DNA of 7,242 bases from a virus. Taxonomy: Duplodnaviria; Heunggongvirae; Uroviricota; Caudoviricetes. Positions within the stretch are counted from its first letter, which is position 1. The number at the start of each line of letters is the position of its first letter. Location of the stretch: the IMG/VR virus record IMGVR_UViG_2690316028_000008. The stretch is one strand, 5' to 3'. Position numbers and translations under genes: made by a program. This document shows positions 1 through 7,242 of this stretch, in pieces. Under the pieces are notes generated by a model, which made no database searches, was not told where the DNA came from, and was given only the letters and a program-made list of their open reading frames with translations.

Positions 1-156
1 CCTCTGACTGAGAGTTTACTCACTTAGCCGCGTGTCCACTATTGCTGGGTAAGATCACACATAGTAGCCTTTTAATTTGTATAAGTAGCAGCAGAGCCGA
101 AGTGCAAGGAAAACGTTGTGAGACGATGACGATATACAGAGCAATCATATATAATA

Positions 157-182
157 TGAAGAAAGAGCCGTGCTTGCGGCTC
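157..182 (-). terminator. Probable intrinsic terminator of the minus-strand cluster
   Basis: Read on the minus strand directly after the ORF1 stop codon (192..190): 6-bp GC-rich stem GAGCCG (182..177), 6-nt loop, stem CGGCUC (170..165), then U-rich tract UUUCUUCAU (164..156). Seen directly in sequence; stem is short. Confidence 0.45.
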
Positions 183-189
183 CAAAATG

Positions 190-1788
190 TTATAATTTCG
201 CATATATAGCATTAAACCAAGTTAATGTCTCGCCTTTTGCATCACTTGCAGTGAGCATTTGATAACTCATTTTTCCTGTAGCAAATTTATTTATCTTCTT
301 CTTCGCTTTACTTTCATTATAACGTGTTAAAGCAGATACCTCTGTTGATACATCTGTCGTATCATCTATGGTTATGTTTACACCAAACACCGCCTGAATA
401 GCATCAGGATGTAAATAATTTTCCATTTCCCTTTTTTCAGTCATGAATGCTATGGAACCATCATTTCTAGCATTTACTGACTTACATTCTTTTTCATACT
501 GAGGAGGGATGGCAACATCTCTATCATAGATGTGAACCTCAGGTTTATTTAGAATTTTTAAGTCATTATTATTAACCCAATCTTTAAGAGTATGTCCCCC
601 CATTGGAATGAAAACTATACGCGGATCATTTATCATATCAGGAACATTTGGAACACCTTGGTCGAGATAAATTTTACCGATATTCCTTAAAAAGTTTATA
701 TCATTAGGGCCTTCAACGCATACAAGAACAGATGCCCTACTATCAGGGTATACGCCAAGATCATTCGCTATGTTCTTTAGCACATCATCATTACCATTTT
801 TAACCTCTAAACCATCATCGAGTGTTCGGGTTATATGGCGTAGAGATTCTGTAGGTATCTTTTCCACAAGTGCAGGGACGTGGGTGGTAATCAATACTTG
901 GCATTTATCAGCATTTGCTAATTCTTGAAATGCATCAATAAGAAGTCTTTGATTAGATGGGTGTTGAGATGTTTCAGGTTCTTCAATTGCATAAATAACT
1001 CCTTTATCTGGGAATTCTTTTTGCAATCTTTCTGCTTCCGCTTTAAAAAAACTAATCAGGACTAAACGTCTAACACCACTACCACGTTTATTGATAGCTA
1101 TTCCTCTATCATCTTCCAATGTTAGCTTGAAAATATTTTCCCACTTAGGTTCCACTTTAAACTTTGGGATTAACCCGGCAGCAAGATTAGGAGATATATC
1201 ATGTAAATGTTTAATTGTGTTTTCAGCCACTTCAACTGCATGTTCTTTTACGCTTTCTTTAATGGATTCAAGTTGAATGTCAATCTTCTGCAATGCTGTT
1301 TGAACCGCTGACTTCATAGGATCCTGTACTTCTGATTCTTCATCGGTACTCGGCCTGTCTGCGCGGAATAATGCAAAGTGAGGGAGTTTGTCATATATTT
1401 TTTCACAAATAACCTTGCCCTCCTCAGCATTTAATTTAACGAAGATTTCTTTAAGCTTTAAATCTCCAATTTTCCTGTAAATTTCTTGTCTTAAACTAAC
1501 ATTGGACCTTTTATCAGCTCCATCAACACCAATAGATTCGGCAATTACTTTAAGTTCATCATTTTTTTTAGCAAGTAAAGATTTCGCGCCTTTTGCTGAG
1601 GGAGCCATACATTTAGCTTGAACGCTGCTAGATCCCTTACCTTTTGCAAATACTCTATATATTTCTAGCTTTCCATTACTATTTAATAAATATTCTTCTT
1701 TAAGGTTAGTTATAGATGTGGCATCCAAAACTATAGGTATATCAGCTCCTGAAAAGATACATCCAATTGACACGTCTTCATTTTCCAC
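190..1788 (-). CDS. OLD-family ATP-dependent endonuclease (ABC-type ATPase + C-terminal Toprim); frame as given starts at GTG and lacks the Walker A region, which lies upstream of an in-frame TAG
   Basis: ABC ATPase motifs: Walker B-like VIYAIEEPE, H-loop LITTHVP. Toprim motifs: VLVCVEGPND (nt ~709-729) and HIYDRD (nt ~517-525). The same frame continues upstream to ATG at 1977..1975 (MKLEKLIL-TAG-NFRGYHGEHSIDINSLTALVGRNDVGKTT) with Walker A GRNDVGKT at 1893..1867 and a GGAGA Shine-Dalgarno 3 nt before that ATG. No SD precedes the GTG at 1788. Family assignment is from motif recognition, not a search. Confidence 0.75.
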   Translation of the reverse strand: MENEDVSIGCIFSGADIPIVLDATSITNLKEEYLLNSNGKLEIYRVFAKGKGSSSVQAKCMAPSAKGAKSLLAKKNDELKVIAESIGVDGADKRSNVSLRQEIYRKIGDLKLKEIFVKLNAEEGKVICEKIYDKLPHFALFRADRPSTDEESEVQDPMKSAVQTALQKIDIQLESIKESVKEHAVEVAENTIKHLHDISPNLAAGLIPKFKVEPKWENIFKLTLEDDRGIAINKRGSGVRRLVLISFFKAEAERLQKEFPDKGVIYAIEEPETSQHPSNQRLLIDAFQELANADKCQVLITTHVPALVEKIPTESLRHITRTLDDGLEVKNGNDDVLKNIANDLGVYPDSRASVLVCVEGPNDINFLRNIGKIYLDQGVPNVPDMINDPRIVFIPMGGHTLKDWVNNNDLKILNKPEVHIYDRDVAIPPQYEKECKSVNARNDGSIAFMTEKREMENYLHPDAIQAVFGVNITIDDTTDVSTEVSALTRYNESKAKKKINKFATGKMSYQMLTASDAKGETLTWFNAIYAKL

Positions 1789-2317
1789 GCTATCGACACA
1801 TTTATCGGTAGCATCATATTTACATAGTTTATGTTCAAAGAAGACACCAAATGCGTCTAAGATAGTTGTTTTACCAACATCATTACGACCAACTAATGCA
1901 GTTAGTGAGTTAATGTCAATGCTATGTTCTCCATGATAGCCACGAAAGTTCTATAAGATTAGTTTTTCAAGTTTCATAAAAATCTCCATTTTTAAAAATT
2001 AAAATTTTATTTTTTAAAACTTACGCATTCGAAAAAACATTTGATTTTGTTGTATTCGAAGTAACAAGAACAATTTATAAAATTAGTTCAATCGAAGTCT
2101 TGGGTAAGACGCTTTTTCTCTTTAACAAAACGGATAACTACGCATTGGACAATAGATACTTTAGGAAACACGCGGAAAAATTGTAACGTTTTGCTCATTC
2201 TAGACCTGATATTCCTTCAAATTAGCAAGTTCGAGAGATAAGGGGAAATTACGATAGTCTACCAGAATCATTTCACACCTGCTCTAAACAATATGCAGAA
2301 AATAATATATGTATTTA

Positions 2318-2980
2318 TTAGTAAAGTTCTCCAGTTCCCTGATCTACACGTTTATAGAAATCAGAAAAATTACATGGGTCAGATATAACTGAGTTTTTAT
2401 CACTACGAAAATCAAATTCTATTTTTTTTATAAGATCAATGGCTGGTATAGTCGAATTTAAAGGGATTTTTTTATAGTTTCTAATTCTGTGATATTCAAT
2501 TGAGTCTAAGTCTACTTCAATCGCTTTATTACCAAAATAATAAAAATGATCTGAAATCAACACGTTATTAGAGCTAGTATCTCGTTCAAGATTTGTCATG
2601 TTAAATGAACCATCAGCATTGCTATGATGAGAATCTTCTTGTATCCATTCATTGTTTTCATTTTGATGGTAGATATTATCGCCCAGAATTTGTACATGAC
2701 TACCATTTCTAGCAGGCTTTTTGAGAGAGAACCTGGTATCCTCCCAATAACCATTGAAACTAATTTTTTCTGAAACTTTCATTAATAGGATACATTTTTT
2801 TTTAGCTGATTTTAAATTGGCTCCACCAACTCCGAGTATCCAATCACCCACTTTAGCTGACTTTCTAATTCCAGGTTTGCATGTTGCCAAGGTACAACTT
2901 CCATGAAATGGATTAGGTGCAAAACCAAAGTCTCTCGTTATTGCATAAACATAAAGGTGTGAGTTGGGATCAATTAGCAT
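2318..2980 (-). CDS. Hypothetical protein (220 aa), unknown function
   Basis: Uninterrupted 220-codon ORF, same strand as neighbours. ATG start overlaps the stop of the upstream gene (ATGCTAA). SD-like AAGGTGG about 9 nt upstream of the ATG. N-terminal region contains YAITRDFGFAPNPFHGSCTLATCKPG (Cys-x4-Cys); I do not recognise a family. Confidence 0.6.
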   Translation of the reverse strand: MLIDPNSHLYVYAITRDFGFAPNPFHGSCTLATCKPGIRKSAKVGDWILGVGGANLKSAKKKCILLMKVSEKISFNGYWEDTRFSLKKPARNGSHVQILGDNIYHQNENNEWIQEDSHHSNADGSFNMTNLERDTSSNNVLISDHFYYFGNKAIEVDLDSIEYHRIRNYKKIPLNSTIPAIDLIKKIEFDFRSDKNSVISDPCNFSDFYKRVDQGTGELY

Positions 2981-3465
2981 ACGACATTTCCACCTTGAAC
3001 TTTATCACGATCCGTACCATCAGGTTTTTCAAAGGAAGTTTTACCTTCTAGTGCGTTGATAATGGCATCACTTCTCCAGGCCACTATAGAGGTTGCATAC
3101 TTTTCGAGATTCTCTGGTAGTTTTACATCGCCTTTTAACCCATTTTCATATACACCTATGATTGGTTTTCCAAGTTGATGAGCTACTTGAATTTCCCAGT
3201 TTACCCAAGGTCTAGTATGTGTCTCTTTCCCGATAACAACTATAACTTGACTAGCCCACCTCATTTTCATTCTAAGTAAACGTGCAATCGTTCGGTCACT
3301 AAGTTTTTTTTCCTCAACTCGTCGCTGGTTTTCAGGTTTCATTCTAATAGAACTATTGCGTAAATGATAACCTTTTGCTGCAGCTAAACGAGAAACTCCA
3401 TCAACACTCGCGTCGTCTTTATGATGATGGCTAACAAAAACATTTTTCTTAATTTCTTTAACCAT
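2974..3465 (-). CDS. TIR-like domain protein (ThsB-like / DUF1863-type)
   Basis: 163-aa ORF with ATG start and AAGGA SD 7 nt upstream. N-terminal VFVSHHHKDD and central VVIGKETHTRPWVNWEIQVAHQLGKPIIGVYEN match the characteristic pattern of bacterial TIR-like (Thoeris ThsB-type) domains, including the conserved Glu in WVxxEI. Recognised by eye. Confidence 0.7.
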   Translation of the reverse strand: MVKEIKKNVFVSHHHKDDASVDGVSRLAAAKGYHLRNSSIRMKPENQRRVEEKKLSDRTIARLLRMKMRWASQVIVVIGKETHTRPWVNWEIQVAHQLGKPIIGVYENGLKGDVKLPENLEKYATSIVAWRSDAIINALEGKTSFEKPDGTDRDKVQGGNVVC

Positions 3466-3486
3466 TTTTAAATCCTTTGTAATTTG

Positions 3487-4518
3487 CTAATTATAAAATA
3501 ATTCTATATTATTGCTTTGATAATGGTATTTTTGTTTAGGCCTTTTATTGTTAAATTTAGTTCGGCATCTTTTATCTATCTCGCATGCACCACTATTTTC
3601 CATGTCCATTAAGGTGTAAACTCTTTCTTCTTTAGGCAGGAAATGGAATATTTCATCCATGTTCCAATTTTCTCTATACTTTTCAGCGATGTTATTTTGG
3701 TTTATAGTGAACCAGAATAAACACTCTTCGCTATTCATTCCATCTCTATTAGAAAAAATCCAATTAATTCCTCTTTCACAACCAGGACCTGAAATAACAA
3801 AGTTCAATTCTGTAAACGGAAAGTTGGGTATGTATGTCAGATCTATGAAAATTTGATATGCTAGAAAATCCCCAATCCCTGAGAATGATTTTAAATGTTC
3901 AAAAACTTCGAACTGATTTCCTGATGATTTTACACCATTAACGATTTTATCTTGGTTATAATAAACAAATTTTATCATTCTAATTACCATATCATTTTCC
4001 GGTATTCCTTCTATATTTTTTAAGTATTTTCCGAAGTTAAACTTCGGACCTCCTAAAATATAGGCTGCACTAAAAAATACGTAGCCTGGTTTTTTTAATG
4101 ATATGTTTATTGTCTTTTCTCTGATCTTTTCATTGATGTCGCGAATAGTCATTTTTGTGAAATCAAAGGGCGCATCAAGTTCATTTAATGTATCGCTTTT
4201 ATTTATTACTCTAAACAAAAATGAATTGAGTATTTTATTTTCATAAGTTAATTTATTGTTGTTTGTTATATTTTTCAATAACCATTTGGTTTCTTTGTCC
4301 CATGTTCTTTTAGTATTTACAAATTTATAGTTTCTCAATATTTTGTCGTCTGTCCAATATGGCGGAAGGTTAAGTATCTCTTTCTTGTAATATATGGATG
4401 TCCTCTCTCGTTGATGATAAAACCATTCCTTGATAACAGCTTCATTCAAGGTAGGTTTAGCGGTTTTAATTTTCATTTCTCTGACATTACAAAAAAGTTG
4501 ATCGTTTTTACTGTTCAC
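3487..4518 (-). CDS. Hypothetical protein (343 aa), unknown function; contains a helix-hairpin-helix-like motif
   Basis: Long uninterrupted ORF co-directional with cluster. Start uncertain: GTG at 4518 overlaps the upstream gene by 11 nt; an alternative ATG at 4476 gives a 329-aa product. Motif FSGIGDFLAYQIFIDL resembles HhH nucleic-acid-binding hairpins. No P-loop. No family recognised with confidence. Confidence 0.6.
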   Translation of the reverse strand: MNSKNDQLFCNVREMKIKTAKPTLNEAVIKEWFYHQRERTSIYYKKEILNLPPYWTDDKILRNYKFVNTKRTWDKETKWLLKNITNNNKLTYENKILNSFLFRVINKSDTLNELDAPFDFTKMTIRDINEKIREKTINISLKKPGYVFFSAAYILGGPKFNFGKYLKNIEGIPENDMVIRMIKFVYYNQDKIVNGVKSSGNQFEVFEHLKSFSGIGDFLAYQIFIDLTYIPNFPFTELNFVISGPGCERGINWIFSNRDGMNSEECLFWFTINQNNIAEKYRENWNMDEIFHFLPKEERVYTLMDMENSGACEIDKRCRTKFNNKRPKQKYHYQSNNIELFYN

Positions 4519-5065
4519 TTAATAATACCTTTTCGAAGAAATGTTTAAAACTATCAATTCCGTTCACATTGTTGTCAAAATGATATTCTGATTTTGTTTT
4601 ATTCTCAGTGACATACTTGTCGATTTCGTATTTTTTATAATTATTATTTTCCCGTTCTATATGTACTATAGTGAACTGATTGTTCTTACACCATGCGAAT
4701 TCTTCATTTGATCTTATGTCAGTAATTATTATATTTTTATTCGTCCCTCCATTTTTTTCTAAAATTTTCAACTCTTCTGATAGCATTCTAATAAATATTT
4801 TTTCTTCAATTTTCCTTAGGCTGTCTAAGCTCAGCCATATATCTCTTGGTGAATGGCTGATAAAGTCGCCGGTAGGTAAGGTTATATTGAGTGGTAACAT
4901 TTTATTTTCAGGTGGGTAATCCTTTTCCATCCAAGGATAAATATAATTGGCCAATTTTTTGAGTTGATCGCTAAATGATAATCTAATAAATCCATAGTTG
5001 GATATCAGATAATTGGCAAGAAAGTCTTTTCCACTACCCGATATGCCCATGAATGCAATTTTCAT
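4508..5065 (-). CDS. P-loop nucleotide kinase, deoxynucleoside-monophosphate-kinase-like
   Basis: 185-aa ORF. N-terminus MKIAFMGISGSGKDFLANYL has a Walker A/P-loop at the extreme N-terminus, as in phage T4-type dNMP kinases (MKLIFLSGVKRSGKD...). ATG (5065..5063) overlaps the TGA stop of the upstream TS-like gene (ATGA), suggesting translational coupling. Confidence 0.7.
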   Translation of the reverse strand: MKIAFMGISGSGKDFLANYLISNYGFIRLSFSDQLKKLANYIYPWMEKDYPPENKMLPLNITLPTGDFISHSPRDIWLSLDSLRKIEEKIFIRMLSEELKILEKNGGTNKNIIITDIRSNEEFAWCKNNQFTIVHIERENNNYKKYEIDKYVTENKTKSEYHFDNNVNGIDSFKHFFEKVLLSEQ

Positions 5066-6147
5066 AGACGGTCCTTATTAGAATTATTAAAATAATTAGA
5101 AGTTACGCTTAGATTGAAATCATTGCTTAACTTAGTTTTTAACACTATTGGTTGATTGAATCTTTCCTGGAAAATATATGATAGAGCTGCTTCTGCATAT
5201 CCCCAAAGTAAATTCCTTTCAGTTTCTACAAAGTGTTTAATAAATATTTTTTTTAGATTTTCGGTTTCCATATCTATTGTGTCTATTTTATGTTCATTTT
5301 CTGTTATTATTCTTTCAAGGAATGAAACTATATCACAGAATAATGATTTTATATTTTGTAACGATGGAGGGAATGATATTTCATCATCGTTTATCAAATC
5401 TGTCATTTGTTCTTCTTTTCTTTCGTATATTTCATTGGCTTGTCCTACTCTATCATCATATATATGAAGATTTGTTACTGATTGATGTAAGTATCCCAGT
5501 TTAATCTCGCTATCAACTTCCCTCTGTAATATTGAAAGTACTATCTCTTGAAGTAAACTAAACTCGAAAAGATTTATATTGCTCACTCCAAATATTAGAT
5601 CGCCGCTTCTTTGAACTATTTTAATGTTTAAATTTTTGTCAGGAGTGATAAAGAAATGAATTAAGTTATTACAAGGAATATCGACACTATGTTCTATGTT
5701 GTATACTTTTATGAGGCTTTCATTCGTATCTCTGTCAGGCATGTATAAGCTAATGACTGCTCTTCTTGTAAATATTCCTTCTTTTTTGAATTGTTGCACG
5801 ACATTCTCAAGTTGCCCGTGAGCGTATAGTCTTTCCCCATAAGCTGCTCGCCAAATGACACCATCATCTGAGTATTTAGGCGCTCTTGGTAAAAAAAAAT
5901 TTAGATATGGTTTAATTCTGTTGTCGCCAGCAAAAACCCATATAGCTTCAGCAAATGTGGAAAATATATTATTTTTTCGACCCGCTAAACTTAAATGCCT
6001 TGATCTAGGGTTTCGTAAGATCATACTAACATCATAAATAGTTATAGCATCCCCATTCCTTGTCGAAATACGAACTCCTTCATTAAGCACTTTTTCTAGG
6101 AGTTTCATTATTACATCGTTAATAGTTTCTCCGTAAATGACGTGCAT
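5062..6147 (-). CDS. Thymidylate synthase superfamily enzyme (ThyA-like; possibly a dNMP C5-methylase or hydroxymethylase) with C-terminal extension
   Basis: Motif-by-motif correspondence with E. coli ThyA: KVLNEG (KVLDEG), EAIWVFAGDN (ELLWFLQGDT), TRRAVISLY (SRRIIVSAW), DIPCNN (APCH, catalytic Cys; codon at 5673..5671), QRSGDLIFGVSNINLFEFSLL ([20 protein letters not shown]), HIY (HLY). About 115 extra C-terminal residues with no TS counterpart. ATG at 6147 preferred over the upstream in-frame TTG at 6153 because SD GAGG lies 8 nt before the ATG. Confidence 0.8.
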   Translation of the reverse strand: MHVIYGETINDVIMKLLEKVLNEGVRISTRNGDAITIYDVSMILRNPRSRHLSLAGRKNNIFSTFAEAIWVFAGDNRIKPYLNFFLPRAPKYSDDGVIWRAAYGERLYAHGQLENVVQQFKKEGIFTRRAVISLYMPDRDTNESLIKVYNIEHSVDIPCNNLIHFFITPDKNLNIKIVQRSGDLIFGVSNINLFEFSLLQEIVLSILQREVDSEIKLGYLHQSVTNLHIYDDRVGQANEIYERKEEQMTDLINDDEISFPPSLQNIKSLFCDIVSFLERIITENEHKIDTIDMETENLKKIFIKHFVETERNLLWGYAEAALSYIFQERFNQPIVLKTKLSNDFNLSVTSNYFNNSNKDRL

Positions 6148-7057
6148 AAACAAAACCTCATGCTATAAAAACATCTTTTTAGTTGATATAGTTTATTGGG
6201 CCTAATCCAGAATTTGGTCCAGCTATGATCTGGACTAACCGGATAGCACGTTTCAATCTCTTGCCTCTAAGAACAGGCTCGAACGTGATAGCCAATTGGC
6301 TTCCCACTTAGCAAGTGAGACCTCGACCCACGCTACCGCCCTCAGTTGCATAGGCACTGCGTTTGTATGAACATTTACAAATGTTACTCATGTTATGGGT
6401 TTGGTCAATCTGGCAATAAGATAATTACGAAACTTTAGACTTATTACTTAAGTGGAGGTGGCGCGAGTCGCTAGCGAGTAAGACTGTCTCTTATATGTAC
6501 CAGAAGCACAACTGACGATGCTCCAAAATCATAGTCACCGCTGCGTAGCAAGCTGTGGCCTCTCGCTACTCCCGGGTGCCCCAGTTACAACGTTGTGGGT
6601 TGCATAAGAAATCTGTCCCGCCGGATTAGAGTGGTGGTGGATTACTGACTGTACTCTGCGTTCAATACAGAGACAGCCCGGAACAGGCAGTAATTGATGC
6701 CGGAACGAGACTATTTAAGAACAAACCGCCCCCGGTTAGCAGGATCGTCTCGGCCGGCAGGAAAGCATGCTAACACCTACATGAAGTCCCTGTCAGTGCA
6801 GGCCCCAGACTCAACACCACCAATCTACTTTTCACCACTGCGAAGTAAGGGGCGCTACGCCCGGTTATGCAGGGGCAGTTTTTCTCCTGTGCGCTTTTCG
6901 TTCCTCTATCGGCTTCCTGTTAATCGTTTCCCAACACAACCCGTCCCGCAAGGGTAAATGGCACGCATGCTGCGCCCTTGCAGGACAGAACGATGTCGGG
7001 AAAGCGAACCGTCAGGCGATACGAAGACGAAAATCACACACTGACGGAGAAAAAACG

Positions 7058-7237
7058 ATGACGATTTCCCTGCATACCACCCGGACAAGCGCCCCTAACA
7101 CCGCAGCGGCGACCAGCGTATCCCCGCTGGACCCGTCAGGCTCCTCAAAAACGAAATTTTCTAAAACCAGAACCGACATTTACCGTAAGCGTCGTCTGAG
7201 TACCGTCTGGTCCCGAATCCAGGATCCTGTAACTTAA
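7058..7237 (+). CDS. Hypothetical small protein (59 aa), Ser/Thr/Pro/Arg-rich
   Basis: ATG at 7058 preceded by GGAGA about 8 nt upstream; ORF runs to TAA at 7235-7237 (MTISLHTTRTSAPNTAAATSVSPLDPSGSSKTKFSKTRTDIYRKRRLSTVWSRIQDPVT). Just below the 60-aa ORF-track cutoff. No family recognised; could be a remnant. Confidence 0.3.
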   Translation: MTISLHTTRTSAPNTAAATSVSPLDPSGSSKTKFSKTRTDIYRKRRLSTVWSRIQDPVT

Positions 7238-7242
7238 GCACC

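Follow-up and report, generated by a model that had tools for sequence, protein, structure and literature searches.

A 7,242-nt stretch of DNA (IMG/VR record IMGVR_UViG_2690316028_000008; hereafter the window) carries a five-gene operon which is an allelic orthologue of DS-4, a known, mechanistically unexplained defence system of Escherichia coli. The operon encodes, in order, a thymidylate synthase (TS)-like enzyme, a P-loop nucleotide kinase, an HMUDK_hel protein, a ThsB-type TIR protein and an Nmad2 protein, and is followed by a gene of the OLD family. Judging from the sequences, it is very probable that positions 2318–6147 constitute the DS-4 orthologue and that the OLD gene lies outside the system. 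New here are the dUMP-type residues of the TS-like enzyme, the modular family whose core is the TIR-Nmad2 pair, and a neighbouring TIR/SLOG2 operon which is outside the DS-4 clone.

The window operon and DS-4

DS-4 (working ID NTTI) comes from the DefensePredictor study of DeWeirdt, Mahoney & Laub (bioRxiv 10.1101/2025.01.08.631726; Science 2026, PMC13092281); its supplementary tables give NTTI as DS-4, and the legend of its Figure 3C places TS, dNMPk, 5hmdUk and NMAD domains within one validated system (PMC13092281). As given there, DS-4 has the same five genes in the same order (TS, deoxynucleoside monophosphate (dNMP) kinase, 5hmdU-kinase-helical (HMUDK_hel), TIR and NMAD), with product lengths of 361, 185, 340, 163 and 220 aa vs. 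361–363, 185, 343, 163 and 220 aa in the window; the host is E. coli in both, and the TIR is flagged as ThsB-like in both. In pairwise BLASTP the window proteins shared 78, 72, 77, 93 and 81% identity with DS-4 A to E over their full length. The window copy differs in being an allelic variant on an integrative and conjugative element (ICE), with an OLD pseudogene downstream. The Nmad2 allele of a 99.9%-identical E. coli ICE copy (WP_023143489.1) is among the predicted defence genes given in the same study. Cloned in E. coli MG1655 with its native promoter, DS-4 is reported there to act on lambda only, giving smaller plaques and a −log efficiency of plating (EOP) of 0.93 (PMC13092281), and it is for this homologue only that an anti-phage phenotype is known; the cloned transcription unit stops after Nmad2 and includes neither OLD nor a SLOG effector (PMC13092281). 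The parts of the paper used here offer no mechanism and no mutants for DS-4, do not place it among the dissected systems and are silent on the neighbouring TIR/SLOG2 operon and on how the wider TIR-Nmad2 family is organised; they do state that several related domains had already been predicted as defensive in earlier in-silico work. A literature search for a mechanism of DS-4, or for TIR combined with TS, found nothing.

An earlier note on the window, made from the sequence alone, had read all six genes as a candidate undescribed system. Open-reading frame (ORF) and G+C analysis agree with its six co-directional genes on a low-G+C island, profile searches agree with its TS-like, dNMP kinase-like, ThsB-like TIR and OLD-family ATPase assignments, and orthology with DS-4 bears out the idea of a defence locus joining a nucleotide-synthesis module to a ThsB-like TIR. 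The two proteins it had left unassigned do have families, namely PF18723 HMUDK_hel (4e-53) and PF18753 Nmad2 (3e-64). Its statement that this is no named system holds in so far as the locus is not Thoeris, Gabija or PARIS (ThsA, GajB and AriB being absent), whilst “undescribed” does not, since the five-gene core is DS-4. PADLOC 2.0 matched only the TIR (ThsB) and OLD (AriA/Old/GajA ATPase), leaving the TS-like enzyme, kinase, HMUDK_hel and Nmad2 unmatched, and NCBIfam profiles gave nothing further. The Nmad, HMUDK and SLOG families reportedly go back to work by Burroughs in 2015 and Iyer in 2013.

The OLD gene, counted as a sixth component in the earlier note, is best dropped from the system because it occurs in 2 of 75 Nmad2 loci, is decaying here, is swapped for an Mrr-type gene in a sister ICE and is missing from the DS-4 clone. 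Its product matches AAA_15 (8e-46) and the PADLOC AriA/Old/GajA ATPase models, and its nearest solved structure is the class-1 OLD protein 6p74 of Thermus scotoductus (2.8e-11). The C-terminal 236 aa resemble the C-terminal part of the GajA model (1.7e-5), with no Pfam Toprim match, and Toprim-like E...DxD-type motifs (VEGPND, YDRD) were spotted by eye. It thus shares ATPase domain profiles with class 1 OLD proteins (P2 Old, 6p74), GajA and AriA; however, no GajB helicase or AriB (DUF4435) gene is present in the window or the adjacent ICE genes and, unlike a class 1 OLD gene, the ORF is interrupted at codon 9 and is not conserved with the DS-4-type operon. This in-frame TAG (1953–1951), also mentioned in the earlier note, is real: it precedes the P-loop (GRNDVGKTT, present), no ATG, GTG or TTG start lies between the two, and the same TAG is found in E. 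coli 3347558, as among the 99.9%-identical copies. RefSeq keeps the homologue intact (WP_077258677.1, 574 aa) through an ATT start at 1914, downstream of the TAG. In Erwinia rhapontici the gene is intact, with Arg at codon 9, and in Atlantibacter it is frameshifted at the P-loop. In a 93%-identical ICE variant (E. coli 22AR0118, L002 10544–11428), the slot after Nmad2 is filled not by OLD but by an Mrr_cat restriction endonuclease and an IS30 remnant; this endonuclease is type IV-like. The OLD gene reads as a separate, decaying defence gene which landed between two convergent operons, and the site between them looks like an insertion hotspot for defence genes.

The same facts bear on an extended form of a proposal in the earlier note (self-DNA hypermodification, with OLD acting on unmodified DNA), in which host or ICE DNA would carry a mark derived from 5-hydroxymethyluracil (5-hmU or hmU) and OLD, the Mrr-type nuclease or the TIR proteins would attack DNA whose modification is wrong, much like Dpd, Dnd or restriction-modification systems. 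Homologues of all three enzymes occur in phages whose DNA has hmU-derived bases, a nuclease gene sits in the post-Nmad2 slot of both E. coli ICE variants, and the Nmad2 fold is one used by modification-dependent nucleases to read bases. We nevertheless consider self-modification with a restriction partner very unlikely: OLD, besides its scarcity, is broken by the TAG here and by the frameshift in Atlantibacter, OLD and Mrr are unrelated and each set apart from the operon (by a 340-nt gap and the IS30 remnant, respectively), and DS-4 works without either nuclease in the published account. Neither aGPT-Pplase2/AADT nor an HMUD1/2 DNA kinase is present, and if the modification ran by way of the dNTP pool, phage DNA would be marked as well when it replicates. 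As a restriction arm, OLD was rejected on its distribution and decay.

A modular TIR-Nmad2 family

A large modular family with mutually exclusive arms is built around TIR and Nmad2, a pair whose genes are translationally coupled. Nmad2 gave 7082 matches in a word-indexed search, with 62–67% identity across phyla, and 2350 clusters at 50% identity in an exhaustive search; starting from the window HMUDK_hel, by comparison, far fewer relatives (57) turned up. When a single genome was scanned for each species, Nmad2 was present in 308 species; 80 loci were fetched and the 75 with an Nmad2 ORF analysed, with neighbouring ORFs clustered, the clusters named by Pfam, and arm pairs counted within 8 kb. 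A ThsB-type TIR gene lies directly upstream of Nmad2 on the same strand in 61 of the 75 loci, 27 of these showing the same 7-nt overlap as the window. TS and HMUDK_hel are found together in 22 loci, MazG_C and UDG (uracil-DNA glycosylase) likewise in 22, and MazG_C and HMUDK_hel in 14, whilst TS with UDG, TS with MazG/MazG_C and HMUDK_hel with UDG were each found in 0/75. The companions of TS are a DNMK-like kinase, a thymidylate kinase-like (Tmk-like) protein or, in 12 loci, a dCTP-deaminase-like protein, and the MazG_C proteins retain the MazG EExGD pyrophosphatase motif.

These loci also allow a purely metabolic explanation to be weighed, in which the TS-like enzyme and kinase would drain dUMP and methylene-tetrahydrofolate or flood the cell with hydroxymethyl-dUTP (hm-dUTP), slowing phage DNA synthesis in the manner of dCTP-deaminase and dGTPase defences, with TIR, Nmad2 and HMUDK_hel as accessories or regulators. 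The small plaques and ~9-fold lower EOP reported for DS-4 on lambda are typical of pool perturbation, and sister loci contain genes for dCTP-deaminase-like proteins and for MazG pyrophosphatases. Against this, conservation within the family is highest for TIR and Nmad2 rather than for the metabolic genes, the metabolic arm is interchangeable, and glycosylase-like proteins are always paired with it, which leaves sabotage of the nucleotide pool alone a slim prospect.

About half of the loci have SLOG-domain partners; in others there are ThsA, patatin or transmembrane proteins. A 668-aa protein joining TIR_2 to SLOG cluster2 was found in 38 loci; other recurrent neighbours are a stand-alone SLOG2, a TIR_2 plus SLOG3 pair, a patatin-transmembrane protein and a small transmembrane protein. 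True SIR2-STALD ThsA is present in six loci, and directly follows Nmad2 in Photobacterium. Several parts are fused in nature: Nmad2 with ThsB_TIR and TIR_2, TIR_2 with Nmad2, Nmad2 with an HMUDK_hel fragment and ThsB_TIR, Nmad2 with MazG and MazG_C, and Nmad2 with NOV_C (P0190, P0239, P0236, P0252 and P0267), and these fusions support physical cooperation of the parts. In Agarivorans the two halves are divergent and located on another ICE.

In E. coli 3347558, the operon which converges on OLD from beyond the left end of the window encodes a hypothetical protein, two ThsB_TIR proteins, a 397-aa TIR_2 protein and a 272-aa SLOG cluster2 protein, the last two being a split form of the 668-aa partner in other phyla. 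This operon is possibly the effector half of the system, its absence from the DS-4 clone may be the reason for the weak protection, and a Thoeris-like logic may run through its TIR_2 and SLOG cluster2 proteins outside the window, readings which draw on co-occurrence. The likeness to Thoeris lies in the strong ThsB-type TIR and in the SLOG-domain proteins, and in a few cases a true ThsA, of related loci; the difference is that neither the operon nor the rest of the window encodes ThsA, and that the TIR is tied to Nmad2 and to genes of the nucleotide and glycosylase-like kinds, which are not part of Thoeris.

Outside bacteria, a phage contig (L005 7463–9020; Logan SRR12632042_23152) has overlapping genes for a kinase-HMUDK_hel pair which shares 49% identity with that of the window, the kinase itself being 49% identical to its counterpart there. 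The pair is surrounded by genes for HMUD2 kinases, ADDT, GATase, acetyltransferase, dUTPase_2 and NT5C, and the contig has phage hallmarks (T4-type spanin, Clp protease); this phage lineage is, on sequence similarity, the probable source of the defence module. In Salmonella phage Det7 (gp35-gp36; L010 3044–5182), an HMUDK_hel homologue directly follows a gene with a MazG-like domain, beside clamp-loader genes, an arrangement of Det7/ViI-like phages which mirrors the MazG_C-HMUDK_hel pairs of the bacterial loci.

Predicted chemistry and base recognition

The TS-like enzyme matches PF00303 Thymidylat_synt (1.3e-16), and among solved structures it comes closest to the CMP hydroxymethylase MilA (2e-14), with true TS at 1e-6 or weaker and T4 dCMP hydroxymethylase at 1e-4. 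Aligned on the residues analysed in the MilA paper, it retains the nucleophile Cys (Cys161 in the numbering of the 363-aa ORF), the Glu and the His/Tyr pair, and Arg-Arg is present, whilst the specificity positions hold Arg (MilA Lys133′), Ser (Ala176) and Asn (Asp186). As this Arg/Ser/Asn pattern is that of a preference for deoxyribose and uracil, the enzyme is predicted to act on dUMP. The segment GVSNINLF, which is without Asp, follows a G-x3-N-I pattern that is E. coli ThyA-like and common to 29 TS-like proteins of related loci. With gp58, the TS homologue of M6, a phage with hmU-derived bases in its DNA, the enzyme shares 29% identity (6e-26), and it is also close to TS homologues of Ackermannviridae and Vibrio phages which have HMUDK_hel homologues as well. 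Because it is closer to the hydroxymethylases, to M6 gp58 and to these phage homologues than to ThyA, we favour hydroxymethyl-dUMP (hm-dUMP) as its product, making it a predicted dUMP 5-hydroxymethylase.

The kinase is T4-gp1-like, matching Pfam DNMK (2.8e-10) and AAA_17/18, with a weak match to T4 dNMP kinase 1dek. It gave no match to HMUD1/HMUD2 (PF18747/PF18748) at E ≤ 0.1 and no similarity to the validated 5-hydroxymethyluridine DNA kinase (5-HMUDK) M6 gp54 (phmmer E ≤ 10 or BLASTP E ≤ 1), which rules it out as one half of a split 5-HMUDK shared with HMUDK_hel. A Tmk-like protein fills the kinase slot in sister loci. The DNMK likeness, the missing HMUD1/2 match and the Tmk-like protein in the same slot lead us to read it as a nucleotide-level kinase, predicted to act on hm-dUMP.

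For the two proteins left unassigned in the earlier note, structure prediction gave a helix-hairpin-helix (HhH) fold for HMUDK_hel and a PUA-like fold for Nmad2. The HMUDK_hel model (predicted local distance difference test score, pLDDT, 93) has an HhH glycosylase or 5-phosphomethyl-deoxyuridine (5-PmdU)-transferase-like fold, and the protein is homologous to M6 gp55 (1.5e-10) and Det7 gp36, the kinase-then-HMUDK_hel adjacency being common to the window and M6 gp54-gp55. Its family-invariant residues include D226 and C312-E313-x-x-K316; D226/C312 recalls the Asp175/Cys247 pair of the 5-PmdU glycinyltransferase PUGT, an equivalence that is a guess, as an HMUDK_hel profile search of PDB sequences left PUGT unmatched and residue mapping impossible. 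The TIR matches PF08937 ThsB_TIR (3.8e-20) and, over its full length, PADLOC ThsB1 (4.4e-73); its nearest solved structures are ThsB 6lhy/9b7d and TIR 8wcf/8fz9, and E91, the Glu of the W-x-x-x-E segment, is conserved in both alignments shown (8wcf, 8fz9). The PUA-like model of Nmad2 is of the YTH/EVE/ASCH type, the kind found in modified-base readers, and an alignment showed C29, C34, C63, C203 and a QEDSHHS segment to be invariant.

Together these predictions suggest a sequence of events. The TS-like enzyme would convert dUMP to 5-hydroxymethyl-dUMP, and the dNMP kinase-like protein followed by host Ndk would yield hm-dUTP, so that replicating DNA would gain 5-hmU; these would be the first steps of phage thymidine hypermodification. 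HMUDK_hel would then flip out or process 5-hmU, and Nmad2, translationally coupled to the TIR, would recognise the modified base, be it within DNA or as a nucleotide. The TIR, once switched on, would consume NAD+ and/or make an ADP-ribose (ADPR)-derived signal for SLOG-domain partners, which in E. coli would be those of the hypothetical-TIR-TIR-TIR_2-SLOG2 operon just left of the window. Taken as one statement, DS-4 identity, the exclusion of OLD and the inferred mechanism have a little better than an even chance of being right, whilst this specific chain of steps is tentative and on the doubtful side. Wider still, DS-4 could be half of a ~ten-gene, Thoeris-like “mark-and-read” immune system, in which the cell would itself produce 5-hmU (in MazG/UDG variants, uracil) as a non-canonical pyrimidine, Nmad2 and a glycosylase-like protein would read this base in fast-replicating DNA or as a nucleotide, and the ThsB-type TIR would signal to SLOG-domain TIR, patatin or transmembrane effectors; we regard this larger picture as distinctly unlikely in its entirety.

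The resemblance to phage thymidine-hypermodification cassettes drawn in the earlier note is real, with homologues in M6, Det7 and the L005 phage. The phage pathway comprises a dUMP hydroxymethylase, 5-HMUDK, aGPT-Pplase2/AADT and tailoring enzymes (Lee et al. 2018 PNAS; 2021 NAR PMC8989533). The window shares with it a TS-superfamily enzyme with dUMP-type residues, a kinase followed by HMUDK_hel (as in M6 gp54-gp55 and L005) and the HhH fold, common to HMUDK_hel and the 5-PmdU glycinyltransferase. It differs, however, in that its kinase is outside the HMUD1/HMUD2 (5-HMUDK) families, in having no AADT (aGPT-Pplase clade 2/ADDT, PF18724) and no pyridoxal phosphate, radical S-adenosylmethionine or flavin (FAD) tailoring enzyme, and in its setting, with a bacterium or ICE as host and defence rather than counter-defence as function. 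TIR and Nmad2 are joined here and absent from the three phage maps inspected (L005, Det7 and M6).

Several points weigh against the chain of base marking and recognition. It draws on gene content, homology, predicted folds and co-occurrence rather than chemistry, co-occurrence also being what assigns a role to the adjacent TIR/SLOG2 operon, and methyl vs. hydroxymethyl transfer by the TS-like enzyme is not readable from sequence. Constitutive hm-dUTP would also enter host DNA, and the model leaves self-tolerance unexplained; the effect reported for DS-4 is weak and concerns a single phage. HMUDK_hel has its phage counterpart in M6 gp55, which was dispensable for hypermodification in vitro, and the second-best structural match of HMUDK_hel is a mononucleotide hydrolase (DUF2419). 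The low-confidence loops of the Nmad2 model (lowest at 88–102) coincide with its invariant residues, which hints at a mobile loop of an active site or at a metal site, and hence at Nmad2 being an enzyme instead of a passive reader; a PUA-like fold would also be compatible with an enzyme on free nucleosides, by analogy with ASCH/YqfB, and the fusion of Nmad2 to MazG speaks for small molecules, not DNA, as substrates.

Some of these points fit a scheme in which DNA stays unmodified and the TS-like enzyme, kinase and HMUDK_hel would build a derivatised hm-dU nucleotide or free 5-hmU. HMUDK_hel would here be a Cys-dependent transferase or a nucleotide N-glycosidase, and TIR-Nmad2 would carry out a conversion such as ADPR transfer or base exchange from NAD+, yielding a small molecule which would activate SLOG effectors, much like Thoeris though through an unusual ligand, or poison phage polymerases. 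The DUF2419 match of HMUDK_hel favours it, as does MilA, to which the TS-like enzyme is closest among solved structures and whose product the N-glycosidase MilB cleaves to a free base. MilA/MilB (BcmA/B) offers the likeness of a TS-like hydroxymethylase coupled to an N-glycosidase acting on a nucleotide; however, MilA prefers CMP (Lys133′, Ala176, Asp186) whereas the residues of the window enzyme predict dUMP, and there are no antibiotic-biosynthesis genes at the window locus. Nmad2 is fused to a MazG pyrophosphatase, which acts on free NTPs and keeps its active-site motif, the TIR is of the ThsB signalling type, and SLOG sensors, ThsA, patatin and transmembrane proteins recur in related loci. 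Yet the HhH and UDG glycosylase-like partners and the PUA-like fold are classically DNA-facing, phage homologues of the kinase and HMUDK_hel lie within DNA-hypermodification clusters, and the five-gene DS-4 clone, as published, has a phenotype without a SLOG effector. Such a nucleotide messenger or toxin is the main rival of the proposed chain, and we hold it to be unlikely.

Genomic setting and significance

The locus is cargo of an ICEKp/high-pathogenicity island (HPI)-type conjugative element in E. coli. The whole segment is present at 99.9% identity in 12 of 5426 complete E. coli genomes, and the same search found the five-gene core alone, at ~93% identity, in four more. Gene maps show ArdC, MobC, a coupling protein and a VirB-type type IV secretion system (T4SS) on the right and shiA on the left, with no phage structural genes in the ICE maps inspected. 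The earlier note had also considered a prophage-derived block of nucleotide metabolism next to unrelated defence genes, for which the phage origin of the closest homologues of TS, kinase and HMUDK_hel speaks. With VirB T4SS, MobC and ArdC around the locus in place of phage structural genes, five translationally packed genes, the same combination of modules across phyla and as gene fusions, and an active homologous DS-4 clone in the published work, a prophage remnant is barely credible.

All six co-directional ORFs called in the window are on the minus strand (Table 1), the first five lying close together, with neighbours that overlap by 4, 11 and 7 nt and just one gap, of 21 nt. The G+C content is 0.28–0.39 over 200–6200 and 0.48–0.55 over 6200–7242.

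Table 1 Features of the window and of the adjacent operon (window coordinates unless stated)
Feature	Position	Strand	Remarks
IS3-family element end	1..56		Departure from reference ICE; overlapping match annotated as IS3 transposase element
Terminator-like hairpin	164..183	-	Directly past OLD stop; consensus scan only
OLD-like gene, class 1 ATPase/Toprim-like	190..1977	-	In-frame TAG
AT-rich spacer between DS-4-type operon and OLD	1978..2317		340 nt; sequence reading
Nmad2 (DS-4E orthologue)	2318..2980	-	220 aa; 7-nt overlap with TIR gene
ThsB-type TIR protein (DS-4D orthologue)	2974..3465	-	
HMUDK_hel (DS-4C orthologue)	3487..4518	-	343 aa
P-loop nucleotide kinase (DS-4B orthologue)	4508..5065	-	
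TS-like gene (DS-4A orthologue)	5062..6147	-	ATG at 6147 is the RefSeq start; ORF listing reaches TTG at 6153
Conserved ICE backbone and ardC 5′ end	6606..7184	+	ardC start codon at 7058; matches annotated ArdC family
TIR/SLOG2 operon of E. coli 3347558	L001 10986-14889		Convergent on OLD; ends 56 nt left of the window's aligned start

Identity to E. coli 3347558 begins at window position 57. At the other end, backbone positions 6606–7182 are ~93% identical in many other E. coli among the matches listed, and ardC is cut at 7184, after ~42 codons, by a foreign repeat (7185–7242); these last 58 nt of the window were found in 525 genomes, on chromosomes and plasmids. Both window ends being mobile-element sequence, such elements have inserted on either side in the source genome. 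The ~900 nt (6154–7057) that separate the TS-like gene from ardC hold no convincing gene, and G+C climbs from 0.40 to 0.54; this interval, perhaps a promoter region or oriT, has no Rfam match, and backbone conservation within it begins only at 6606. Scans of the window for tRNAs and Rfam families gave no match, and a promoter scan returned counts at chance level, with a single plausible terminator, past OLD.

The finding is real, already published as a system, and one from which OLD is to be dropped. Few defence systems are made up of enzymes with which phages evade defence; DS-4 is one of them, with its predicted TS-like hydroxymethylase, its dNMP kinase and an HhH protein of aGPT-Pplase-like kind. 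Handles for the DS-4 problem are the predicted substrate dUMP, the predicted folds of two orphan proteins and the residues named above, together with TIR-Nmad2 as a real conserved unit with interchangeable arms and a candidate missing half, the TIR/SLOG2 operon, which could turn the weak DS-4 phenotype strong. If the proposed mechanism is true, DNA base modification would be linked to TIR signalling; on the wider “mark-and-read” view, TIR-Nmad2 systems, found in at least 308 species genomes, would represent a new class of immunity which uses phage hypermodification chemistry as an infection sensor.

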